Positions 3,922-60,125 of a DNA stretch of 64,000 nt are shown one piece after another. Numbering within the stretch: position 1 is the first letter of the stretch; each line of letters begins with the position of its first letter. The stretch covers positions 102,047 through 166,046 of the forward strand of contig JAQTMG010000002.1 in NCBI GenBank assembly GCA_028714455.1, read 5' to 3'. Both the position numbers and the translations under genes were made by a program. Below the pieces are notes generated by a model that saw only the letters and a program-made list of their open reading frames with translations, searched no databases and was not told where the DNA came from. This DNA comes from Patescibacteria group bacterium. Its GTDB lineage: Bacteria; Patescibacteriota; Patescibacteriia; CAIXNZ01.

Positions 3922-3938
3922 ACGAAAAAGGAGGGAAA

Positions 3939-4557: not shown

Positions 4558-4642
4558 ATTAGGTGATTAGTAGAGTGTGATTAGTGACTAATATCCATTC
4601 ACTCTCCACCAAACCCTCCACGCTCCACACTCAACGCTAAAC
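4558..4642. repeat. MITE-like intergenic repeat, copy 1
   Basis: Shares GTGATTAGTGAC(T/C)AATATCCA(T/A)T(C/T)ACTCTCCAC and CTCCAC/CTCAAC-rich tails with the copies at 10198, 21026 and 34659. Confidence 0.6.
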
Positions 4643-4660
4643 CAGCGAAAAAATATATTT

Positions 4661-6862
4661 ATGATTAAAAAAACCTATCATGTCCAGGGCATGGATTGCG
4701 CGGCTTGCGCTGTCCAGATTGAAAAAAAATTAAGTAAAATGCCTGAAATAAAAAAAGTCGTGGTTAATTTGGCCACTGGCATGCTTAATATTGAATCAGA
4801 CAATGAGATTCCTTTTGAAGTTTTGCAAAAAGCTGTCGAGGATATTGGTGCTTATAAATTGCACAAAATGGAACCTGGCGCGGCCGGACACGAACACGGC
4901 GCGATGTTGAAAGAAGCGGAAATTAAGAAATTAAGAAATAAAACGATTTTTGGCGTGATTATTTCTGTCCTGGTGATGATTCTGTCTTATTCTCAATTTA
5001 TTCCAATTCTTAATCAGATTTCAAATAATGTTATAAACCTTTTACTTTTGGTTCTGGCCGCGGCCGTGCAGATCTGGTTGGGTTGGCAGTTTTACAAAAG
5101 CACCTGGGGTAGTTTAAAAAGCTTTAACTCGAACATGGATACCTTGATTGCTCTAGGCACGACAAGCGCTTTTGTTTATTCTTTAGCAGCCGTGATTTAT
5201 TCAATAATTAGTAATCAAAATGTTGGCACCTATTTTGACACGGCTGTTGTAATCTTAACTTTAATTATTTTGGGCAAATATCTGGAAGCCAGGGCCAAGG
5301 GCAAGGCCTCTGATGCTATTAAGAATTTAATTAAACTCCAGGCCAAAATTGCGCACCTCATGGTTAATGGGGTGGAAAAAGAAATTGAGCTTGATCAAGT
5401 TAAAATTGGCGATTTAATCATCGTCAGACCCGGTGAAAAAATTCCGGTTGACGGTGAAATTGTTGAGGGCGAATCCTCGATTGACGAAAGCATGATTACT
5501 GGCGAAAGTTTGCCGGTTGATAAAAAGATTGGCGATAAAGTAATTGGTTCAACAATAAATAAATCCGGCTCTTTTACTTTTAAAGCGGAAAAAGTCGGCG
5601 CTGACACTGTTTTGGCCCAGATCATTAAATTGGTTGGCGAAGCCCAGGGCACAAAAGCGCCCATTCAAAATCTGGCTGATATAATCTCCGGCTACTTTGT
5701 GCCGATCGTTTTGTTAATTGCCCTATTTACCTTTATTATCTGGCTTATTGCTGGCCAGGCCTTTGTTTTTTCTTTGGTCATGGGAATTTCCGTTTTAATT
5801 ATTGCCTGTCCGTGCGCACTTGGGTTAGCCACACCAACCGCGATTATTGTCGGCACTGGCAAGGGCGCGCAAGAGGGGATTTTAATTAAGAATGCCGAAG
5901 GCCTGGAAAAGGCCGAGAAAATCAACGTACTTTGTTTTGATAAAACAGGCACTCTGACCGAGGGCCAGCCAGAGGTTCTAAACTTTTCAGACGAGGATAC
6001 TTTAAAGATCGCTTATTCGCTGGAGTCAAAATCAGAACATCCTTTTGCCGCCGCCATCACTAAAAAAGCGCTGGAATATAAATTTGAGCCGCAAAAAATA
6101 ATTGGGTTTAAAGCAATCACTGGCCGAGGCATTTTGGCCAGCATTGAAAATGAAAAATATTATCTTGGCAATCAGGAATTTTTAGCCGAGCAGGGGATTG
6201 AGTTGCCGGCCGAGACCAAAGCAAAAATTTTGGCAGAAGAAAATTTGGCGCGCAGCGTTTTACTTTTGGCAGATGAAAAAAAATATCTGGGTTATATTTC
6301 ACTGGCTGATCCGATTAAGGAAAATGCCAAGAGTTCGATAGACTTATTAAAATCAATGAACATCAAGCCGGTTCTGATGACAGGCGACAATTCAAAGACG
6401 GCCGAGGTCGTGGCTGGTATTTTAGGCATCAATGAGTGGTATGCCAAGATCCTGCCAGATGAAAAGCAAAAGAAAATCTTGAGTCTGCAGGCTGATGGTA
6501 ATAAAGTTGGCATGGTTGGCGACGGTATAAATGACGCGCCAGCTTTAACCCAGTCGGACCTGGGCATTGCCATGGCCACCGGCACTGACGTGGCTATTGA
6601 ATCAGCGGACTTTGTTATTTTAAAAGGCGATTTGAATAAAGTTATCAAAGCCTTGGTTCTTTCCAAAAAAACCATGTCCACGATCAGGGGTAATTTGTTC
6701 TGGGCCTTTATCTATAATATTATCGGCATTCCCATCGCCGCCGGCATTTTATTTCCGTCAACTCATCTTTTGCTTTCCCCGACCATTTCAGCCGCGGCCA
6801 TGGCTTTTAGCTCTTTGTTCGTGGTTTTAAATTCCTTATTGCTAAAACGCGCCAGGATATAA
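4661..6862 (+). CDS. copA: copper-translocating P1B-type ATPase
   Basis: N-terminal HMA motif [11 protein letters not shown] transmembrane motif, DKTGTLT phosphorylation site and GDGINDAP hinge. Confidence 0.9.
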
Positions 6863-8662: not shown

Positions 8663-10195
8663 ATGTTTAAGGAAAATAATTACAAAAAATATCTTTATAT
8701 TCTCTCATTTTTTTGCGGCATGACTATCATGGCCGTGGAAATTTCGGCTTCGCGCCTTTTAGCGCCATATTTTGGCACTTCGACTTTTGTCTGGACCAAC
8801 ATCATCGGCGTGATTATGGTGGCTCTGGCCATTGGCTATTTTGTCGGCGGCAAGTTATCCGACAGGCGTCCAGATTTAAACGTTTTGCTCAAAATAATCC
8901 TGGTTTCCTGTATTTTTTTAATGACCATACCCTTTATTACTAGGCCGTTGGTGGAATTTATAACCGGCAGCATCTCAATCTGGCAATCGGCTACGAGTTT
9001 AATCTTTATCGGTTCTCTTCTGACCGTGGTCATCTTGTTTATTTTTCCGATAATCTTACTTGGTATTGTCAGTCCGTTTATAATCAAGCTGCTTTCTCTG
9101 AAAAATGGCAACGTAGGCAATGACGCTGGACTGGTTTTTTCCATCTCAACCGTTGGCAGTATTGCGGGAACTTTTTTGCCAGTGCTGGTTTTTATTCCCT
9201 ATCTCGGCACCAGGAAAACAATTTTAATTTTTTCCTTGTCTTTGCTGGTAATCGCGATTATTGGTTTGTTTCCCAAAAAAATTTCCTTGATTTTTCTTTT
9301 ACTTTTTATTCCTGTCATTGTTTTAAAAATGCCAGCGATCAAATCCGCCAATGCTGTGGCCGAGGGTGAGTCCGTCTATCAATATTATCAGGTGGCTGAC
9401 CAAAATAATTTTAGATATTTAAAAATCAATGAAGGTATGGGCGTTTTTTCCGTGCTTAACAAAAGTTCAGACAGCGTTTTAACTGATTCTTATTTTGATT
9501 ATTATAATATTTTGCCTTACATTGACGGCCAGAGTAAAAAGCAAGATGTCCTTATTTTGGGTTTAGCCGGCGGCACAGTCAGCACCCAGTTGAATCATTT
9601 TTTTGCCAACGACTTTGATCTGCATATTGACGGCGTGGAAATAGACAAAAAGTTAATTGAAACGGCCAAAAAGTATTTTAATTTGGAGAATCCCTCTCTG
9701 ACCATTTACAATTTAGACGGCCGAAATTTTTTAGATTATTACCAAAATAAATATAACGCAGTGGTGATTGATGTTTATTCCAACCAGCTGTATATTTCTT
9801 TCCACCTGACCACCAAAGAATTTTTTGATTTGGTAAAAAATCATCTGAAGCCTCAAGGTATCGTGGCCATGAATGTCAACGCTACAGGTAAAGATTCGGC
9901 GCTTTTAAAAAACATCACCAATACCATGCTTTTGAGTTTTAAAAATGTTTATACGGTCTGGACCAGTAATTACAGCTGGAACTATTTAGTGATCGCCTCT
10001 GATAGCGATTTAGATTTCAAAGATTTGAAAAATATCAAAGTTGATCCGCAGTTAAGATCAATTATTGATAATACCAGACAAAATGTTGAGAGGGTTGAAT
10101 ACGACAACAAATTTGGTTTCCTGACAGACGATAAAGCGCCAATTGAAAATTTGACTGACTGGATGATAATTGATTATGTATATAAGAATATGTGA
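8663..10195 (+). CDS. spermidine/spermine synthase family protein fused to an N-terminal polytopic membrane domain
   Basis: C-terminal LILGLAGG...IDGVEID...VVIDVY matches the aminopropyltransferase fold. About six transmembrane helices at the N-terminus. Confidence 0.6.
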   Translation: MFKENNYKKYLYILSFFCGMTIMAVEISASRLLAPYFGTSTFVWTNIIGVIMVALAIGYFVGGKLSDRRPDLNVLLKIILVSCIFLMTIPFITRPLVEFITGSISIWQSATSLIFIGSLLTVVILFIFPIILLGIVSPFIIKLLSLKNGNVGNDAGLVFSISTVGSIAGTFLPVLVFIPYLGTRKTILIFSLSLLVIAIIGLFPKKISLIFLLLFIPVIVLKMPAIKSANAVAEGESVYQYYQVADQNNFRYLKINEGMGVFSVLNKSSDSVLTDSYFDYYNILPYIDGQSKKQDVLILGLAGGTVSTQLNHFFANDFDLHIDGVEIDKKLIETAKKYFNLENPSLTIYNLDGRNFLDYYQNKYNAVVIDVYSNQLYISFHLTTKEFFDLVKNHLKPQGIVAMNVNATGKDSALLKNITNTMLLSFKNVYTVWTSNYSWNYLVIASDSDLDFKDLKNIKVDPQLRSIIDNTRQNVERVEYDNKFGFLTDDKAPIENLTDWMIIDYVYKNM

Positions 10196-10197
10196 GG

Positions 10198-10305
10198 AGT
10201 TGAGAGTAAGGAGTGGAGGGCTTAGTGGAGAGTAATTGGATGTTGGTCATTAATTACCCTCAACCAATTACCTAACGCTCAACTCTCCACTCTCCACTAT
10301 TTACC
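10198..10305. repeat. MITE-like intergenic repeat, copy 2 (palindromic version)
   Basis: GAGTTGAGAG...CTCAACTCTC arms. Contains AGTGGAGAGTAATTGGAT, the reverse complement of the core in copies 1 and 4. Confidence 0.6.
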
Positions 10306-10365
10306 AAATGGAAGGTTTGCATGGCGGTCTAGTGCGCACGCCTGCCCCGTACCAATATTTATCAA

Positions 10366-10406: not shown

Positions 10407-10494
10407 GGAGGGATCGCATAGTGGTCTAGTGCGCTTGCTTGGAGAGCAAGTGTGTCGCAAGGCACCGCGAGTTCAAATCTCGCTCCCTCCGCCA
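10407..10494 (+). tRNA. tRNA-Ser(GGA), complete with encoded CCA, nested inside the interrupted outer tRNA
   Basis: Acceptor GGAGGGA/TCCCTCC. Anticodon stem CTTGC/GCAAG with loop TTGGAGA. Long variable arm. T-arm GCGAG-TTCAAAT-CTCGC. Discriminator G then CCA. Confidence 0.8.
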
Positions 10495-10630
10495 TGGTGC
10501 TGGATTAATAGCGGGGGATATTAATCTCATTCCTTCCGCACATTTTTAAAATATTGGTACGGGGCTTGGAAAGCGTGTTGGGCGCAAGCCCTCGTGGGTT
10601 CAAATCCCACACCTTCCGCCATTAATTTAC

Positions 10631-26029: not shown

Positions 26030-26430
26030 TATAATGTCAAATAAAAAAGCACACCATTTTGAATGTCTGGTGTGCTTGAGGTACCAACACGGAATGTTTC
26101 ATCCTTCCTCTGGGGCAGTTGGCGTGCCCGTGGCTTATGCCACCTGTTGTTTTCCACTTTCGTGGGCGTTCGGCTTGTACATCCGCAGGGGGAACAACAG
26201 CTATTCCCCAAGAAACAACACCATTGTCCTACTAGGTGCAGCTAGTCCCGACTCGTTTACGGGAGTGCCTCCTAAGGATGTTATCTCTCTGCGGATATGT
26301 CCACCATCACCCCGTAGCCTTGCTCTGATTGTTTTTGGCCTGTCAGAGTAGGTTTTGGTGGCCGGTCCATTACGGAAACGAGATTTGTCAGGCCGTTATG
26401 AAATTCAGGTTCTTGTACATTAACACCTCC
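26030..26430 (-). ncRNA. GC-rich structured RNA candidate with a 10-codon SD-led mini-ORF at its 5' end
   Basis: On the minus strand: SD AAAGGAGGTG then ATG (MYKNLNFITA), followed by about 330 nt of GC-rich paired sequence ending in GCACACC...GGTGTGC plus T6. The 105-aa ORF on the plus strand lacks a SD and is unlikely to be coding. Confidence 0.35.
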
Positions 26431-26495
26431 TTTGTTTTTTATAATATCAAAAAATCGCCAGAAAGGCGATTTTTTTAGATCTTCAATATTATTTT

Positions 26496-26806: not shown

Positions 26807-26881
26807 TGGCTCCGGGGGTGGGATTCGAACCCACGACCAAAGGATTAACAGTCCTCTGCGCTACCACTGCGCTACCCCGGA
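26807..26881 (-). tRNA. tRNA-Asn(GUU)
   Basis: On the minus strand: UCCGGGG acceptor, D-arm GCGC-AGTGGTA-GCGC, anticodon stem GAGGA/TCCTT with loop CTGTTAA, T-arm GTGGG-TTCGAAT-CCCAC, CCA encoded. Confidence 0.85.
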
Positions 26882-27084
26882 AAATTTTGAATTTACTTCA
26901 CAACCACTACTTGCCCTTGCACCTTTGTGGTGCTGGGCGCTACCCCGGAATGGTATTAATAAAAAAACGAAATAGATTCGTTTTTTTACATTTGGAATAT
27001 AACATGTTTTTGAAAGAACGTCAATTTTGATCTTGATTTAAAATCGCCATATCAGCGATTTTTTGATATAGTTATAATATTCAA

Positions 27085-28209: not shown

Positions 28210-29127
28210 ATGTATATATATTGTCCCCCCAAACCAATTGAATTAGAACTCACCGACGAGTGGGGTTTTAGAATTAGACAAAAAGCAGCCGAGTACATCG
28301 CCGCTAATCAAAACCGAACTGGCGCGGAACGAGGAAGCTCCGAAGAACAGGGATTTGGCGCACTTGCTGAAATGGTTATCCGCAATAAGTTGGGTATGCC
28401 AGAAATTAATCCGGAAAGCCATCCCCTTGGTTATGACCTTTTACTTCCTTCTGGCGTTAAAGTTGACGTAAAGTGTCGTGGCGGCTCACTCCCATTTAAA
28501 GAAGAATATGAAAGTGACGATGGAATTAAGAGGGAAGCAAAACACAATTTTTTTGCCCGCCAAATTCATGATGAAAATTTAGATACGGATATTTATGTAA
28601 TGACCCATCTTGAAACGCCAAAGAATAGAGTACTGCCCGGCACTACGCGACAAAAAAAATGGATACTATATATTTGTGGCTGGGTATCAAAAGAACGCGT
28701 ATATAAAGAGGGGGTTTATTTGCCGCGTGGTTCGCTGACAGAGCAAGGGAGAACCTGGTTCACTTATCGTGGCCAAGAGATTGAATTTTATAATCGTAAT
28801 CTTAATGGTCTCAATAACATTAATGACCTTATGAGTATTGAGTTAGCAGATGTGGAAAAGGACAAAGTCCGTGGAGGAGACTTAAATTTAACATCCGTCG
28901 ATGCTGTAAGAATCACCCATGACCTTATAGGGCGTGGCGTTTTGACAAAAGAACATCTGGCCTTTATCCAAAGGGATACTGGTCTGGAAAAAAACACAAA
29001 GCCCATCTTACATGCTAATCAATATTTCCATTTATTGAAATATCTTAAGAAAAAAGGTGCTGTCACGGACACGGAAATTGAAAAGGCGCGCCAGATCCTT
29101 CAAGAAGAACCATACGCGGGAATCTGA
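28210..29127 (+). CDS. putative Type II restriction endonuclease (PD-(D/E)xK fold)
   Basis: GYDLLL...VKVDVKCRG matches the PD...(D/E)xK pattern. It converges on and overlaps an adjacent DNA methyltransferase gene. Confidence 0.5.
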   Translation: MYIYCPPKPIELELTDEWGFRIRQKAAEYIAANQNRTGAERGSSEEQGFGALAEMVIRNKLGMPEINPESHPLGYDLLLPSGVKVDVKCRGGSLPFKEEYESDDGIKREAKHNFFARQIHDENLDTDIYVMTHLETPKNRVLPGTTRQKKWILYICGWVSKERVYKEGVYLPRGSLTEQGRTWFTYRGQEIEFYNRNLNGLNNINDLMSIELADVEKDKVRGGDLNLTSVDAVRITHDLIGRGVLTKEHLAFIQRDTGLEKNTKPILHANQYFHLLKYLKKKGAVTDTEIEKARQILQEEPYAGI

Positions 29128-30221
29128 AATAGCTTCAGTTTATTATTTTCTATTTTTTTATATAGCGTCTCGGCTTCTTTGATGCGCTGTTTAGAGACTG
29201 CCACGTAATCCGTTCGATATTTTTTAAACAAATAGACCTCTTGATTTTTTTCAATCCCAATATATTTTCTATTTTCCAAAACCGCTGCCACAAGAAAACT
29301 GCCACTTCCGCAAGTGTTATCTAGAACTATATCACCTTCTTTAGTGAATGTACGAATAAGATATCGACCAAGCTCTACCGGTTTTTGTGTAGGATGATAG
29401 ACTCTTCCCTCGCTCTCGGCGGTCTTGAAATAAACCACGTCAGTTGGATATCTTTCGCCATTACTTTTTACCTCAACTGCTTTAAAATCACCATAAGACC
29501 CAGTTAGCTGATCTTTTCTAAATCCTTTATTGTATGGCTCCCCAGGAGTCATTTGTGGATTATATATAGGCTGATTTTTATAAAAAATACATACATCTTC
29601 ATGTCTGCGAAGTGGCTGTCTTCTTGAGTTTAAAAAATTCGTTGGCTTTGACTTAACCCAGGCTATCTTGTATTTAAACAGTTTGGGTCTGGATAACATT
29701 AAATTTGCGGTAAATAATCCCTGGCTCGTCAAAGCAATAACGCCATTGTCTCGAATAACTCGTTCATAATGTTTCCACAATTGATCAAGAGGAATGACGC
29801 TATCCCAGTGATTTTGTGTTGTACCATACGGCAGATCGCACAAAATCATATCTATTGATTTGGGCGGAATATCATTCATTACTTTCAGGCAATCACCTTC
29901 AATCACGCGATTTTCGAAATATGATATTTCCTTTTCGGTTCTATTAACTTTAATTTCAGGCTCCTCAAAATTAAAATTTTTTCTTAAATACCAGTGACAA
30001 TAAGTATTTATCGGCAATCCTTCCTGTCGTGCACGACATTTAAGCTCGAGATAAGAATTCGTTCCAAGCAAATTACGCAGTTCGCTACTTCCAAGGTCGG
30101 CGATATTTTTATATAAATCTTTATTCCTTTTACCAAAAGCTAAAATAAGTCCTTTCGCTTTTGAGCTGATCTCTTTGCGATCGGAAAAATAGACAGCTTT
30201 GAAAATTTGGTTATCTCCCAT
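29100..30221 (-). CDS. DNA methyltransferase, beta class (N4-cytosine or N6-adenine)
   Basis: Motif IV DLPYG precedes motif I VLDNTCGSGSF, the order found in the beta group. Confidence 0.75.
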   Translation of the reverse strand: MGDNQIFKAVYFSDRKEISSKAKGLILAFGKRNKDLYKNIADLGSSELRNLLGTNSYLELKCRARQEGLPINTYCHWYLRKNFNFEEPEIKVNRTEKEISYFENRVIEGDCLKVMNDIPPKSIDMILCDLPYGTTQNHWDSVIPLDQLWKHYERVIRDNGVIALTSQGLFTANLMLSRPKLFKYKIAWVKSKPTNFLNSRRQPLRRHEDVCIFYKNQPIYNPQMTPGEPYNKGFRKDQLTGSYGDFKAVEVKSNGERYPTDVVYFKTAESEGRVYHPTQKPVELGRYLIRTFTKEGDIVLDNTCGSGSFLVAAVLENRKYIGIEKNQEVYLFKKYRTDYVAVSKQRIKEAETLYKKIENNKLKLFQIPAYGSS

Positions 30222-32291: not shown

Positions 32292-33062
32292 ATGAAAGAA
32301 TCCATTCTAAATATAACCAAACCAAAAGAGTCAATTCCATCTTTTGAAAAATTTTCCGGCCTCTGGGAAAAAGGTTTTGAGGACATTAAAATATTTAACG
32401 GCAAAAGCGGCCGGATTGTCATGGGCACTGACAAGGGGTTGCGTGAACAGAATGAAGATATTATTGCCGTTGATTTTGGAAACGACGCCTTTGCCGTGAT
32501 TGATGGCATGGGCGGCTATGCGCATGGCCAAGAGGCGGCCCAAATAGTTGGCCTGCAATTTTTAAAAGCAGTCAAAGAAAAATTGAGCCCGCGCGAGATG
32601 CATAAAAATGCCCACATCGTGATGCAATGTACCGGTTTCAAAGAAAGCGGCGCCGTTTATCTGGCTGGCCAAATTGAAAAGAAAAAATTAAAAATCTGGT
32701 CTGCCGGCGATGCGCATTTAGTTGTTGTGGACAGTAAGGGTGAGATTAAATTCTCATCGAAATATACAACCTTGCAAGACGCGCCAAGCGGTCATGGACT
32801 TGGTGAAGCCAAAACCGATTTTACTTTACTAGAAAATTATGACAGAATTTTTGTTGGAAGTGATGGCTTGTTTAATAATATTAAAGATGAAGAGCTTAAA
32901 AATCTGAAAGGCGTGCCAATAGAAAAAGCCATGCAAGAATTGGTTAAATCCGCTAAAAATGCCATGAAAAACGGTCTTGATGAAAATACCGGCGGCAGTC
33001 CTGACAATCTTACGATTTTAATTTATGAAATTTTGCCCACGCCGTTACGTGGAAAAAATTAA
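32292..33062 (+). CDS. PP2C-family Ser/Thr phosphatase
   Basis: AVIDGMGGYAHG...SDGLF metal-binding motifs. Confidence 0.65.
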   Translation: MKESILNITKPKESIPSFEKFSGLWEKGFEDIKIFNGKSGRIVMGTDKGLREQNEDIIAVDFGNDAFAVIDGMGGYAHGQEAAQIVGLQFLKAVKEKLSPREMHKNAHIVMQCTGFKESGAVYLAGQIEKKKLKIWSAGDAHLVVVDSKGEIKFSSKYTTLQDAPSGHGLGEAKTDFTLLENYDRIFVGSDGLFNNIKDEELKNLKGVPIEKAMQELVKSAKNAMKNGLDENTGGSPDNLTILIYEILPTPLRGKN

Positions 33063-33127
33063 TATATTATTTTTCATTAAAATCAAGCAAATTCTAATCA
33101 AATGAAAAAAGCCGCCTGATTCTCAAA

Positions 33128-33160
33128 AGACCCCGAGATAGCATTAAGGGGTCTTTTTTA
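33128..33160 (+). terminator. terminator hairpin, 5' copy of a near-duplicate pair
   Basis: AGACCCCGAGATAGCATTAAGGGGTCT followed by T6. It closely matches the hairpin at 34613-34647. Confidence 0.55.
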
Positions 33161-33242
33161 TTATATATGACTTGATTTTTTTATTTTTATCTGTTAAGGT
33201 TATCCATCGGAACATTGAAAAAATAAAATTAAGGAGGAAAAA

Positions 33243-34604
33243 ATGGAAAAAGCGTTTACGATGGATCAAACGTGGCTACAATGCATGAATTGCGGACACA
33301 GAGCCGACTTGCTGGAGGAAAGAAAATTCAGGTGCCCAGAGTGCGGAGGACTCTATGATATTGAGCACAATTTTAAAAGATTGCCCGTTGATCTTGGGGA
33401 TGATTCGTCGGGAAGAAAATGGAGTTTTAAATCGTTGTCGTCCCGTTATTTTCGCGAGCTTTTTCAGGCCAGAGCTGGGGGCGCTTTCAATTCTTTTAAG
33501 CCGGAATGTGTTTCAGGCATCTGGCGCTACAAGGAATGGATTATGCCGTACTTGCCCGAAGGTCAGATTGTCACTTTGCACGAAGGCAACGTGCCAATCG
33601 TGCCAGCCGGTAAAAATCTTCAGGCCTGGGTCGGCGATGTTGAGCTTTATATCATAATGGAAGGCATGACTCCGACCGGTTCATTCAAGGATTTCGGCGG
33701 CACGGTCATGATGTCCATTGCCAAAGCCGCTGGCATCAAAGCCGTTTGTTGCGCCTCAACCGGCGACACTTCGGCCATGGCCGCGGCTTATGCGGCGGCG
33801 GCCGGCCTTGCCTGTGTGGTCATTTTGCCCCGCGGCAAAGTCACGCCAGTTCAATTGGCTCAACCGCTTGTTCACGGCGCCAGAGTCATCACTTTGCCCG
33901 GCAGCTTTGACGATTGCATGCGCGTCATGCAGGAACTCGTTAGAGAATACGGCATCTACCCGGCCAACAGTCTTAATCCTTCGAGGATCGAGGGCCATCA
34001 GGCCACGGTTTTTCAAATCGCCCAGCGCTTTAACTGGAATTTACCCGATTGGATTTCGGTGCCAGTGGGCAACGGCAGTAATTGTTCATCGGTTGGCAAA
34101 GCTCTGCGTCTTATGAAAAAATTCGGCTTTCAAGCGCCGACCAAAATTTTGGGCTGCCAATCAACGGCCGCCGATCCGCTTTCTTTTCCCTGGTTCGGCG
34201 GAATCACCCTGGAAAAGTGGAAAGCAGATTACTCGCCGATTAAAGTAGGCGAAACTTCTGCCACGGCCGCCAGAATCGGCGACCCTGTCTCTCGCGACAA
34301 AGTCATGAGAGAAATTCTGGCCTCGCATGGCGCCATGCAAACCGCGGCTGAAAGAGAATTGAACGAAGCCGTGGCCATTTGTGGTAAAGACGGCCATAAT
34401 GTCTGCCCGCAAACTGGCATGGCTCTGGCTGGCGTAAGAAATGCCTTGAAGTGCGGCCAAATTAAGGCGGGGGAGCGAGTTATTGTCGTTTCCACCGCAA
34501 CCGGCCTGAAGTTTGGCGAATCTGCCGCCGCCAACCTCAAATCAAACATTATTAATGCCACCGATTGTAAAATAAGCACGGTGGCCAAAATTATGGAACT
34601 GTAA
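33243..34604 (+). CDS. thrC: threonine synthase-family PLP enzyme with an N-terminal zinc ribbon, GC-rich and SD-led
   Basis: TPTGSFKDFGG matches PTLAFKDFGG. STGDTSAMAAA present. Zinc ribbon C-x2-C...C-x2-C. SD AAGGAGGAAAAAATG. Confidence 0.65.
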   Translation: MEKAFTMDQTWLQCMNCGHRADLLEERKFRCPECGGLYDIEHNFKRLPVDLGDDSSGRKWSFKSLSSRYFRELFQARAGGAFNSFKPECVSGIWRYKEWIMPYLPEGQIVTLHEGNVPIVPAGKNLQAWVGDVELYIIMEGMTPTGSFKDFGGTVMMSIAKAAGIKAVCCASTGDTSAMAAAYAAAAGLACVVILPRGKVTPVQLAQPLVHGARVITLPGSFDDCMRVMQELVREYGIYPANSLNPSRIEGHQATVFQIAQRFNWNLPDWISVPVGNGSNCSSVGKALRLMKKFGFQAPTKILGCQSTAADPLSFPWFGGITLEKWKADYSPIKVGETSATAARIGDPVSRDKVMREILASHGAMQTAAERELNEAVAICGKDGHNVCPQTGMALAGVRNALKCGQIKAGERVIVVSTATGLKFGESAAANLKSNIINATDCKISTVAKIMEL

Positions 34605-34612
34605 ATAACCCA

Positions 34613-34647
34613 AGACCCCGAGATTACATCAAGGGGTCTTTTTTTAT
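34613..34647 (+). terminator. terminator hairpin, 3' copy of a near-duplicate pair
   Basis: AGACCCCGAGATTACATCAAGGGGTCT followed by T7. Confidence 0.6.
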
Positions 34648-34658
34648 TGGTTTTTGAT

Positions 34659-34752
34659 GGAGAGTGGGTTAAGTAATCAGTTAAACGTGATTAGTGACCA
34701 ATATCCAATTACTCTCCACTAAATCCTCCACTCTCTACTCTCAACTCTAAAC
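34659..34752. repeat. MITE-like intergenic repeat, copy 4
   Basis: GTGATTAGTGACCAATATCCAATTACTCTCCACT is near-identical to copy 1. Confidence 0.6.
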
Positions 34753-34806
34753 AAGTACATGGTGGTCTTTTTCTTTTTTAAAAAATTGTGCTAAAATAAA
34801 TTCAAT

Positions 34807-36581: not shown

Positions 36582-36625
36582 AGCATGCGGCAAATAGTAC
36601 CGATGTCTGGCTTTTTAAAACCGAG

Positions 36626-36650
36626 ACCGTCACGCCAGTGGCGGTTTTTT
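36626..36650 (+). terminator. terminator hairpin, 5' copy of a near-duplicate pair
   Basis: ACCGTCAC-GCCA-GTGGCGGT followed by T6. Matches 37747-37775. Confidence 0.5.
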
Positions 36651-36751: not shown

Positions 36752-37732
36752 ATGGATAAAATCGTTTTTTCAAAACCGCTTTCAAGAACCGCGCTGGTTG
36801 ATGCAATTCGGAGGAGACAACCCGTGTCGCAAAGAGCGGCCAAGAAACTGGCGCTTCATCTGGCCAAAAAATTCGGCACGGAGATCAGAAGAGCAGTGGA
36901 AAAAGCGCTTAAAAAACAGGGTGCGTACTCAATCATGGCCATAAGCAAATTAAAACCCCGGATTTCCAATGAGGACGGCTGGAGAGTGAGCTGGCCTTCT
37001 TACCGATGGTATTGCCGGATCGCGGGCGGATTTTACGAAGTAACTACGTCCCTTGCCATTGTCGTTTGCCACGGACAGATGAGTTCGAAACTTTGGGTAA
37101 CCAATCAGCTGAACGCTCTTTGCGTCAGAAAAAGAAAAAGTTTCCGGGTTCAACAGTCGGGATTCGAAGTTATCGCGATAAAAACATTTCTAGAGCGAAT
37201 GAAACCGGTTACGCAAGAAATCTGCGGCTTAATTTGGCCGTATTACAAACGATCCGTCAGAGACGTTCTGCGCCAGAATACCGTTCATTATTGTTGGTTT
37301 GTTTGCGAGGGCGCCGAGACAGACCAATTACTGATAACGCCGCTATTATCTCGAAAAGAATTTCTAGAAACGATTAAACATTGCGACGGCTACAAATTCT
37401 TCATCGAGAACTTCTATCTGCCGTTGTCAAAAGCTCAATCTAATAGATCGCTTGTTGGCGAGGGGATAAAAGAATTAGAGAAAAGGGGTTATCCTTGTAT
37501 CTGGATTTTGCACAGTGATAGTTCTTTTTTCTTCCCCGAGTCGGTTATAAAGGACGCTTATAGTTCAGTCGACAACAAAAAAATGCGTCCCGCCTACCGC
37601 TTGATTGGTTTGGCCTCTAATCTTTACCCCCATCTTGAAGGACCAGCCTATCAGCCGTTTTGGGAAATTTCCTATTACGCGGTAAATCATTTTGCTGATG
37701 CCTTTAAAAATCCGCGACCCAAAAGAAGGTGA
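36752..37732 (+). CDS. hypothetical protein, GC-rich and SD-led
   Basis: SD AGGAGGCAAAGGAGGT. Basic N-terminus. No recognised motifs. Confidence 0.5.
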   Translation: MDKIVFSKPLSRTALVDAIRRRQPVSQRAAKKLALHLAKKFGTEIRRAVEKALKKQGAYSIMAISKLKPRISNEDGWRVSWPSYRWYCRIAGGFYEVTTSLAIVVCHGQMSSKLWVTNQLNALCVRKRKSFRVQQSGFEVIAIKTFLERMKPVTQEICGLIWPYYKRSVRDVLRQNTVHYCWFVCEGAETDQLLITPLLSRKEFLETIKHCDGYKFFIENFYLPLSKAQSNRSLVGEGIKELEKRGYPCIWILHSDSSFFFPESVIKDAYSSVDNKKMRPAYRLIGLASNLYPHLEGPAYQPFWEISYYAVNHFADAFKNPRPKRR

Positions 37733-37746
37733 GCTTTTAGCAACGA

Positions 37747-37775
37747 GGCCGTCACGCCAGTGACGGCCTTTTTTA
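37747..37775 (+). terminator. terminator hairpin, 3' copy
   Basis: GGCCGTCAC-GCCA-GTGACGGCC followed by T6. Confidence 0.6.
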
Positions 37776-37820
37776 TTAATACAAAAACCACCCCGCGACG
37801 CGGAGTGGTTTTTGGTTTAC

Positions 37821-42985: not shown

Positions 42986-43177
42986 ATGTCACAGGTTCTC
43001 TCACTGCTCAACGAGCAGATTCTCAATTTTGCTTTATTAATGGAGGATGAGGGCGAAGAAGAAGCCGAGGAAGAAGCTGAAGAAGAGACTGAAGAGGAGG
43101 AGGATGAAGATGAAGAAGGCGACGAAACCAAAAAAGAAGACGAAGAAGAAGACGAAGACGAAGAAGAAGGATTTTAA
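42986..43177 (+). CDS. small protein with a 43-residue polyacidic (Glu/Asp) tail
   Basis: Own promoter and terminator. N-terminal amphipathic segment then EEEAEEEAEEETEEEEDEDEEGDE... Confidence 0.45.
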   Translation: MSQVLSLLNEQILNFALLMEDEGEEEAEEEAEEETEEEEDEDEEGDETKKEDEEEDEDEEEGF

Positions 43178-59694: not shown

Positions 59695-60099
59695 TCATTC
59701 CGAGCGTAGCGCGAGGAATCCATAACATCGATTAATATGAAACAATATTGCGTTTACATAATGACTAACAAAAGTGACTCCGTGGATTATACCGGCATAA
59801 CGAATAATTTATTTCGAAGAGTATACGAGCATAAAACCCATTTTAATGAGAAGAGTTTTACTTCAAAATATAATATCAATAAATTAGTTTATTTTGAGGA
59901 ATATAATAATCCCGATCAAGCCATATACAGAGAAAAGCAAATAAAGGGCTTGAGTAGAGAAAAAAAATTTAATTTAATAAAAACTATCAATCCTGATTTT
60001 AATGATTTGGCCAGAGATTGGTATAAAGATAGCCAGGCCGAGCGCAAAGAACAACCGACTCAACCTAAATCATAGATTCCACGCTGCGCTCTGAATGAC
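59694..60099 (+). mobile_element. GIY-YIG nuclease cassette bracketed by about 27-bp imperfect inverted repeats
   Basis: Left repeat GTCATTCCGAGCGTAGCGCGAGGAATCC at 59694-59721. Right repeat GGATTCCACGCTGCGCTCTGAATGAC at 60075-60099. A gene-less copy of the same repeats lies at 2371-2455. Confidence 0.55.
59737..60075 (+). CDS. GIY-YIG family nuclease (COG2827-like)
   Basis: YCVYIMTN...DYTGITNNLFRRVYEHK GIY...YIG motifs. Confidence 0.75.
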   Translation: MKQYCVYIMTNKSDSVDYTGITNNLFRRVYEHKTHFNEKSFTSKYNINKLVYFEEYNNPDQAIYREKQIKGLSREKKFNLIKTINPDFNDLARDWYKDSQAERKEQPTQPKS

Positions 60100-60125
60100 A
60101 GTTGTGGCTCGGCTTTTGCAAAAAT

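Follow-up and report, generated by a model that had tools for sequence, protein, structure and literature searches.

A single gene for a threonine-synthase-family enzyme, here called thrC, lies between two near-identical hairpins in the genome of a Patescibacteria group bacterium of the lineage CAIXNZ01 (GenBank assembly GCA_028714455.1). We analysed a 64,000-nt stretch of its contig JAQTMG010000002.1 (positions 102,047 to 166,046), hereafter the window, and all coordinates below are those of the window unless a relative is named. An original prediction, made from the sequence of this stretch alone, had regarded the gene and its flanking hairpins as a possible mobile cassette. Here we describe the locus together with its counterparts in related genomes, and propose that it is probably a vertically inherited, self-contained transcription unit whose terminator was duplicated locally in a stretch where genes turn over.

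The thrC Transcription Unit and Its Flanking Hairpins

Only one open reading frame (ORF) lies between the upstream hairpin H1 (33127-33162, plus strand) and the downstream hairpin H2 (34612-34648, plus strand). This thrC-like gene (33243-34604, plus strand) encodes 453 aa, was assigned through PF00291, TIGR00260 and a structure match, and is already annotated as a member of the threonine synthase family in public records. It is preceded by the Shine-Dalgarno sequence AAGGAGG (33231-33237, plus strand), 5 nt ahead of the ATG, so the single Shine-Dalgarno-led gene of the original prediction is indeed present. Further upstream lies a predicted sigma-70-type promoter (33172-33200, plus strand), read from the sequence as a -35 element TTGATT (33172-33177), a 17-nt spacer and an extended -10 element TGtTAAGGT (33192-33200). 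The databases hold three genomes of this clade, namely the window, a JGI contig (L122, thrC 72% identical) and L124 (thrC 76% identical), and the promoter layout is kept upstream of thrC in both relatives, as TTGATT, 17 nt and TGcTAAAGT in L124 and as TTGACA, 16 nt and TGcTAAGAT in L122. The form common to all three has TTGATT or TTGACA at -35, a spacer of 16-17 nt and TGnTAARRT as the extended -10.

At the far end of the gene, H2 begins 8 nt past the thrC stop codon. H1 starts 66 nt past the stop of the ORF at 32292-33062, with no other terminator between, and sits 17 nt ahead of the thrC promoter. The upstream accessory operon is composed of a 196-aa ORF and a PP2C/SpoIIE-like gene, and H1 is its predicted terminator, which would insulate the promoter of thrC. 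Judged by fold, T-tract and position, both H1 and H2 are probably canonical Rho-independent terminators.

The core of H1 is AGACCCCGAGATAGCATTAAGGGGTCT (33128-33154) and that of H2 is AGACCCCGAGATTACATCAAGGGGTCT (34613-34639). Both hairpins had been noticed originally, and they prove to be the sole two copies here: with 3 mismatches permitted, the motif matches twice in 64 kb, where 0 matches are expected (100 shuffles). From AAGACCCC to the ATT behind the T-tract the repeat measures about 36 nt, and over this length H1 and H2 differ by 3 substitutions and a 1-nt indel in the T-tract, with 14 nt as the longest uninterrupted identity; they are thus homologous copies and not independent terminators, as had been proposed. 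The bare stem AGACCCC-N13-GGGGTCTTTT is common, with at least 120 loci in all kinds of bacteria, the genome of the window not being among those listed. Across the loci fetched, 161 same-stem hairpins were compared, and apart from the window's own copies all of them carry at least 5 mismatches over the 13 "loop" positions; H1 and H2 agree at 10 of these 13 and share the AA...TTTTTATT flanks as well. No copies of the H type were found in related loci beyond the orthologous ones described below, and none in viral contigs.

The predicted RNA folds reach -15.2 kcal/mol for H1 (z -4.8) and -15.0 kcal/mol for H2 (z -4.3), values equalled by 0 of 200 shuffles. What had been described as a 13-nt loop is itself structured. 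The outer stem of H1, AGACCCC/GGGGTCT, is lengthened by A/T pairs and capped by a GA/AA internal loop, an inner stem GAU/AUU with a G.U pair and the triloop AGC, and the apex of H2 has the inner stem GAU/AUC and the triloop UAC. In the family fold, an outer stem of 7-10 bp leads through a symmetric internal loop (2x2, GA/AA) to a 3-bp inner stem and a triloop, with no bulged bases, and this two-tier arrangement recurs in all four members (H1, H2 and one hairpin each in L122 and L124), the comparison of pairing resting on per-sequence folds. Directly after the GGGGTCT stem come T5 in H1 and T6 in H2, each then followed by ATT, and the T6 and T7 tails reported originally hold only if the last T of the stem is counted. 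The substitutions between H1 and H2 affect two triloop bases and one C, whose change to U makes a G-C pair into G.U; the L124 hairpin shows a C-G to U-A change, one U.G pair and one extra base pair. Every wobble, be it in H1, the L124 copy or T1 (a hairpin of the second pair described below), is a G.U on the sense strand, which suggests selection on the RNA rather than on a DNA cruciform or a recombination site.

A Conserved Threonine-Synthase-Family Enzyme without Pathway Neighbors

The thrC product matches PF00291 (E 1e-49) and TIGR00260 (185 bits against a cutoff of 167.1), and it scores under the cutoffs of the other equivalog models for thrC (PRK08197 and others). Its best solved structure is the Arabidopsis threonine synthase 1E5X (E 1.6e-71, query residues 62-445), which outranks the bacterial enzymes as a structural match. 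Residues about 12-36 form an N-terminal Cys4 zinc-ribbon-like motif (CxxC...CxxC; C14, C17, C31, and C34), followed by a segment resembling the N-terminus of plant threonine synthase and by a core of pyridoxal 5′-phosphate (PLP) fold-type II; the family assignment and the zinc-ribbon-like N-terminus of the original prediction are thereby upheld. The PLP lysine, Lys149, sits in the sequence SFKD. K61, T88, N154, S155, R160, and N188 of the Thermus enzyme, which we take to be its PLP and phosphate ligands, align to K149, T176, N242, S243, R248, and N277, and these six residues are invariant in 20 homologs together with the four cysteines of the ribbon. Homologs at 60-76% identity are found in many members of the Candidate Phyla Radiation (CPR), among them Nealsonbacteria, Falkowbacteria, Azambacteria, Niyogibacteria, Pacebacteria, and Paceibacterota. 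The protein thus appears to be a widespread and strongly conserved CPR enzyme with the active site of a threonine synthase and a predicted activity to match.

The gene was said to stand alone, and the scan of window ORFs 140 aa or longer turned up no hom, thrB, asd or lysC, nor were any seen beside the homologs at the loci examined. We found nothing on point in the literature about a lone threonine synthase in CPR or Patescibacteria. As a separate observation, the locus of a 68% relative (L133) carries uncalled DNA at about 5780-6000 of its contig, just 5′ of thrC, with N- and C-terminal fragments like those of amino-acid kinases (MIKKIVVKISGQ..., ...GIPVAVTDDREKNILLRII...), which may be a decayed pathway gene beside thrC.

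Vertical Inheritance and GC Content

Amino-acid identity between the window and L122 is 71.8% for thrC, 71.8% for the rlmD/trmA-like gene, 72.3% for RNHCP, 63.7% for VTT/PAP2 and 88% for zf, and the downstream order zf (minus strand), rlmD-like, RNHCP, VTT/PAP2 is common to both. Four-fold sites are 40% identical between the two, near saturation. Since thrC has diverged in step with its syntenic neighbors, we regard it as vertically inherited. In the one relative that reaches the anchor genes, L122, the syntenic comparison finds thrC at the same locus, which does not agree with a cassette. The identities of thrC give the tree (window,(L122,L124)). A search for further clade members based on rlmD gave contigs of 2.4-3.7 kb that end before thrC, and rlmD outgroups at about 60% identity have no shared synteny and no thrC near rlmD. 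A metagenome scan for close thrC relatives yielded only three loci, all belonging to a single 69% relative and ending in unrelated terminators. For the PP2C-like gene, homologs reach no more than 50% identity, and it offers no usable synteny for empty sites.

On either side of thrC, the window, L122, and L124 carry different sets of genes. A gene for a small, basic and Cys-rich protein (67-68 aa, KKCIC...CPVHGY...DPGCY) is located at 4506-4709 in L122 and at 1342-1548 in L124, 3′ of thrC in the former and 5′ of it in the latter, and a sequence reading ..VKEGSWA.. comes after the thrC terminator in L122 and directly after the thrC stop in L124. The moved gene and the placement of ..VKEGSWA.. 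show local reshuffling around thrC within the clade.

The G+C content (GC) of thrC is 0.519, against 0.39 in its 4-kb flanks, so the gene is richer in GC than its surroundings, as first noted. The same holds in all seven loci compared (window, L122, L124, L125, L126, L133, and L135), where thrC ranges over 0.43-0.52 and the flanks over 0.33-0.41, with GC at the first and second codon positions (GC1 and GC2) also raised; at third positions (GC3) the value of 0.566 is inside the range of other window genes. An excess seen in seven of seven loci is a property of the family and not a sign of foreign origin, and it reflects the Ala/Gly-rich, strongly conserved sequence of these proteins. With divergence matching that of the neighbors and a GC excess that is family-wide, thrC is not a recent horizontal import, and the idea of a foreign or mobile cassette is not supported.

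Which Hairpin Is the Original

In L122 the sequence AAGACCCCGAGATAATATCAAGGGGTCTTTTTTATT, 34/36 identical to H2, stands directly 3′ of thrC in the matching position, and an unrelated terminator precedes the thrC promoter. L124 has the family member AGACUCUC-AAGAUAAUAUCAA-GAGGGUCU just ahead of the thrC promoter, after the 68-aa gene that in L122 is downstream of thrC, and no hairpin in the 25 nt visible past its thrC stop. The distant thrC loci L125, L126, L133, and L135 have unrelated terminators. An H2 ortholog after thrC of L122, together with these unrelated terminators of distant loci, suggests that the H hairpin arose in the clade as the terminator of thrC; H2 would accordingly be the ancestral thrC terminator and H1 the derived copy. 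Copies are thus found 5′ in the window and L124, and 3′ in the window and L122, and the L124 copy shares the apical GAUAAUAUC and the right flank TTGNCAA with the 3′ copy of L122. A degenerate H copy considered in the thrC 5′ untranslated region of L122 was not significant, with 12% of shuffles scoring equally.

A Second Terminator Pair in the Neighborhood

Downstream of H2 follow a truncated palindromic repeat, an ABC-2 transporter and then a 326-aa ORF. The repeat (34669-34755, plus strand) is a truncated copy of an 87-110-nt palindromic element resembling a miniature inverted-repeat transposable element (MITE); it begins about 20 nt past H2, where it marks the onset of the variable region. 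The ABC-2 transporter operon ends in the terminator T1 (36613-36650, plus strand), the 326-aa near-ORFan defined by homology searches follows (36752-37732, plus strand), and behind it lies T2 (37735-37772, plus strand), a second copy of the T1 hairpin, the pair having been recognized by repeat comparison and fold. T1 and T2 are 31/38 identical, with a compensatory G-C to A-U change plus G.U wobbles, and their repeat reaches about 10 nt past the palindrome on one side only. This hairpin type is unrelated to H and absent from all relatives fetched. T2 sits 13 nt from the bidirectional terminator (37786-37810) of the minus-strand zf gene and so seems functionally redundant. The 326-aa ORF has no Pfam, NCBIfam, PHROG or PADLOC match, and only 5 matches in 1.84 billion representative proteins, one of which is itself and the best other 31% identical. 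Matches of the neighboring ABC ATPase to AAA-ATPases in PADLOC were generic and not meaningful, and PHROG and PADLOC scans of the neighbors, as well as Rfam, gave nothing relevant.

Among about 35 terminator-like hairpins in the window there are two near-identical pairs only, both consecutive and within 4.7 kb, T1/T2 lying 2 kb away from thrC. About 1 Mb of control DNA with 300 hairpins and 138 consecutive pairs contained one pair at least 80% identical, and this pair (L036, from Streptomyces) is a duplicated tRNA gene with its terminator and so not comparable; about 110 control pairs yielded none like those of the window. The pattern of terminator pairs is real, local and unusual.

Some further repeats belong beside these pairs as observations of their own. 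A weaker third pair, 26451-26480 and 27040-27069, consists of palindromic, bidirectional A/T-flanked hairpins (AAAATCGCC...GCGATTTTTT, 80% over 30 nt, 589 nt apart) that bracket a minus-strand tRNA-Asn(GUU) (26807-26881) along with a short ORF on the same strand; their resemblance is largely confined to the stem and may be due to chance. The MITE-like repeat has other copies at 4559-4645 (plus strand) and 10197-10275 (minus strand), is rich in CTCTCCAC motifs and matches no Rfam family. At 10190-10310 it forms a long palindrome over its full length (DNA fold -21 kcal/mol, z -4.3), and the 5′ arm is gone from both remaining copies, so that it looks like a decaying element; one copy abuts H2, one precedes the gene for a CopA-like P-type ATPase and one adjoins tRNA-Ser. 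A dispersed short family at 3925, 47011, 63085, and 63764 was rejected as being only Shine-Dalgarno context, AAAAGGAGGGAAAA-ATG, and a repeat match flanking alaS as AT-rich low complexity.

Origin of the Duplicated Terminators

The reading we favor, and hold to be probable, is that of a vertically inherited, self-contained thrC unit with a locally duplicated terminator in a gene-turnover stretch. The unit would comprise its own sigma-70-type promoter, a Shine-Dalgarno sequence, the 453-aa Zn-ribbon threonine synthase and a Rho-independent terminator, with neighboring genes turning over fast around it. H2 would be the ancestral terminator of thrC and H1 a paralogous copy, which may now end the upstream accessory operon and block read-through shortly before the thrC promoter; both would act as RNA hairpins in the sense transcript and would be kept by selection on structure. 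H1 may have come from a one-off local duplication of the terminator of about 36 nt during a gene-scale rearrangement at this place, be it insertion or translocation with duplication of the target, or tandem duplication of the whole thrC unit with subsequent loss of one coding copy, and a comparable event would have happened again 2 kb away around the near-ORFan between T1 and T2. The terminator and insulator functions, the route of duplication and its date we infer from sequence. Duplication at terminators is a local process in this hotspot of gene turnover; insertion with target duplication accounts best for the ORFan pair and for thrC would have to be old, and tandem duplication followed by loss is the conventional route, which has left no trace. 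A larger tandem duplication was considered and rejected, as the bracketed units have no homology to the DNA before or after them, beyond the hairpins. The short runs of identity, at most 14 nt, disfavor integration through short homology. We found nothing on point in the literature about genes flanked by duplicated terminators.

Several points weigh against this reading. Vertical inheritance is read from L122, the only one of the three clade genomes that reaches the syntenic anchors. The redundancy of T2 means that selection for insulation cannot account for every copy. The tandem-duplication route is weakened by the lack of any remnant of a second thrC or a larger segment beside the copies, and the edges of the repeats nearly coincide with the terminator, which looks targeted rather than randomly segmental. 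The distribution of copies among the three genomes fits one old duplication plus two later losses, or else independent events, and the features shared by the L124 and L122 copies hint at the latter, although the informative sites are too few.

The strongest rival, which we judge unlikely, is a recurrent hairpin-targeted insertion that duplicates its target and brought the thrC unit into the clade ancestor and the near-ORFan later. Staggered cleavage flanking the palindrome would let repair copy the whole terminator of about 36 nt, by analogy with the duplication of the CRISPR repeat by a Cas1-type integrase or with cruciform resolution, and the enzyme would be encoded elsewhere or be a host repair function. 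Such a route would fit repeats that are confined in both cases to the terminator give or take about 10 nt, two private pairs in so short a distance and neither with a dispersed copy, interiors without homology to the flanks and the rarity of comparable pairs in control DNA. One of the bracketed units is a near-ORFan with a redundant T2, as expected if made by insertion, and the outgroups with no thrC near rlmD leave room for an ancestral insertion of thrC. Against it, Pfam scans of the window ORFs found no integrase, transposase or other recombinase, and neither a casposase nor Cas1 lies in the 64 kb; the evidence amounts to two cases in one genome, thrC is vertical in the clade, the wobble pairs point to a constraint on RNA and not on DNA, and the one-sided extension of the T1/T2 repeat is unlike what cruciform resolution predicts. 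Cas1-Cas2 and casposon insertion duplicates a target of about 30-37 bp, often palindromic, that then flanks the new DNA. To our knowledge, insertion of this type is the only mechanism for duplications of such a length, 36 nt is far longer than any transposon-type target duplication that we know of, and we know of no precedent for target duplications of 36-38 nt around inserts of kilobase size. Inverted repeats were sought inside H1 and H2, where the longest match between the inner ends is 7 nt and AT-rich. Target duplication as originally suggested is therefore not of the transposon type, given no terminal inverted repeats, no transposase and an apparently ancestral H2; an old insertion or rearrangement that duplicated the terminator may nonetheless have given rise to the pair.

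A broader form of this idea is more doubtful still, namely that terminators in this CPR lineage are preferred entry points for gene-sized DNA and that insertion itself duplicates the terminator of some 36 nt. If true, each new gene would arrive with a terminator and already insulated, a recombinase-cryptic way of gene gain that would shape turnover in streamlined genomes, with the thrC pair as its old example and the ORFan pair as its recent one.

It is very unlikely, in our view, that the thrC unit is excisable, with H1 and H2 serving like attL and attR in a RecA-dependent or slippage-driven loop-out and reintegration that would switch thrC on and off in the population. The geometry of repeat, gene and repeat is that of the wzy locus of Salmonella Typhimurium, where 113-bp perfect direct repeats (attL/attR) mediate excision and the circular form was shown (PMC12074656), and the arrangement is not static, L124 seemingly being without the 3′ hairpin and L122 without the 5′ one. 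The 14-nt identity, however, is under the minimal efficient processing segment of 23-27 bp quoted for RecA/RecBC (PMC12074656). In records that know this strain from a single sample, no contig was found in which a single hairpin links the PP2C-like gene directly to the ABC transporter, without thrC, and the high conservation of thrC across CPR suggests that the gene is not dispensable.

Yet lower in probability, and close to negligible, stands an active mobile cassette, integron- or transposon-like, with H1 and H2 as attC or att sites or as a target-site duplication. Direct repeats around exactly one gene with GC above its flanks do recall such an element. RYYYAAC is absent from 33090-33200 and 34580-34690, GTTRRRY is absent from both hairpins, its only two matches lying inside the adjacent 87-nt repeat, and neither IntI nor another recombinase was detected among the scanned ORFs. 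Sites of the attC kind are 57-141 nt long with extrahelical bases, against a unit of about 36 nt without bulges here. The gene also has its own conserved promoter, and on these four counts the attC-like boundaries of the original prediction are not supported. Each hairpin type is private to one pair in the window, whereas integron arrays share one family, H2 is orthologous in L122, no viral contig has the hairpin, and both the divergence of thrC, equal to that of its neighbors, and the family-wide GC excess speak against an active element.

Chance or convergent similarity of two independent terminators can practically be set aside, for although terminators are constrained in composition (A-tract, G+C stem, T-tract), the bare stem is common and weakly similar hairpins recur in L126, the agreement of the loops and flanks is approached by none of the other matches listed, shuffles predict no second copy and the control DNA holds no comparable pair.

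For annotation, the consequence is that thrC, GC-rich and bracketed by hairpins, should be treated as a normal core gene of Patescibacteria passed on vertically, rather than as a mobile cassette. In AT-rich streamlined genomes, a conserved family can have an intrinsic GC excess of about 10 points, which should therefore not be taken for a sign of transfer. The occurrence of two private sister-terminator pairs within 4.7 kb, against none comparable in about 1 Mb of control DNA, suggests that rearrangements begin or end at terminators in this genome. As a conserved Zn-ribbon threonine synthase with an intact active site is widespread in organisms thought to be without amino-acid biosynthesis, one may ask how it obtains its substrate. 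Duplication at terminators and a lone conserved threonine synthase in CPR remain as minor curiosities.

Other Features of the Window

The remaining content is that of an ordinary CPR chromosome, including MurB, GatA, the CopA-like ATPase, BipA, DnaG, RpoD, MnmA, and AlaRS, as well as S11/S4/RpoA and glycosyltransferases. A probable restriction-modification pair lies at 28210-30221, 3 kb upstream of the thrC region, where an N6/N4 DNA methylase gene (29100-30221, minus strand) overlaps the 3′ end of a 305-aa ORF (28210-29127) that has no family match and is possibly the restriction enzyme. The tRNA-Ser(GGA) gene (10407-10494) stands between perfect 17-nt inverted repeats GCCCCGTACCAATATTT (10344-10360 and 10549-10565), about 50-60 nt away on either side, which might pair over this distance so that the tRNA precursor lies within a long-range stem.

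Beside tRNA-Asn, the segment 26040-26445 (minus strand) is a candidate structured RNA of about 400 nt with GC of about 0.50, an SD-like start and no ORF of more than 10 codons; a terminator on the same strand (26047-26077) closes the segment, which folds better than shuffles (-134.9 kcal/mol, z -4.2) and matched no Rfam family even at E<=0.1, and a 105-aa plus-strand ORF there is probably spurious. A 33-nt direct repeat ATRGATTCCACGCTRCGCTCTGAATGAC (2412-2444 and 60072-60104, 88% identical) lies about 20-50 nt 5′ of two gene starts, those of a GatA-like amidase (2464) and a GT2 glycosyltransferase (60126), and may be a shared regulatory site. At 43049-43169, GAA/GAG-rich repeats of 9-12 nt encode the low-complexity, acidic tail, rich in Glu/Asp, with which a coding region ends.

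Comparison with Known Systems

The components of the locus are of known kinds, intrinsic terminators and a gene of the threonine synthase family. H1 and H2 resemble Rho-independent terminators in the G+C-rich stem-loop with a T5-T7 tract, in their position 8-66 nt past a stop codon on the sense strand, in stable folds (-15 kcal/mol, z about -4.5) and in substitutions that preserve pairing, G.U included; they differ in occurring as consecutive sister copies and in having a two-tiered hairpin instead of a simple stem and tetraloop.

With integron cassettes the locus shares single genes between similar imperfect palindromes in direct orientation. It departs from them in that R″ and R′ cores are absent, the palindromes are too short, IntI, attI and Pc are missing and transcription would start from the gene's own promoter, besides each hairpin type being limited to one pair and the gene vertically inherited. 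Phage "morons", described by Hendrix and colleagues, are reportedly units of promoter, gene and terminator between other genes, often of deviant GC. The thrC unit is likewise an autonomous unit of deviant GC that sits between unrelated genes and follows the terminator of the gene ahead, but it is chromosomal, conserved across CPR and vertical, its GC is a family-wide trait and no phage context surrounds it. As at the wzy locus, one chromosomal gene lies between direct repeats with no recognizable recombinase (PMC12074656), yet the repeats here measure 36 nt and agree without a break over 14 nt at most, and no product of excision was seen.

Unlike in Cas1 or casposon systems, there is no Cas1 or casposase, the bracketed units are genes of 1.1-1.5 kb and not spacers, and neither an array nor a leader is present. 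Palindromes such as repetitive extragenic palindromic sequences (REP), bacterial interspersed mosaic elements (BIME), Correia elements, and MITE-like repeats are also intergenic, located at gene ends and able to terminate transcription, and a MITE-like repeat adjoins H2; the H and T hairpins differ from REP and MITE in forming one consecutive pair each in 64 kb, with no transposase, including that of the REP-associated tyrosine type (RAYT).

As for the enzyme, an extra N-terminal Cys4 ribbon and the lack of a pathway partner in any examined locus set it apart from the class I or plant-type threonine synthase (1E5X), with which it has in common a full-length PLP fold-type II core, the conserved PLP lysine and aligned residues, in a match that includes part of the N-terminal domain of the Arabidopsis enzyme.

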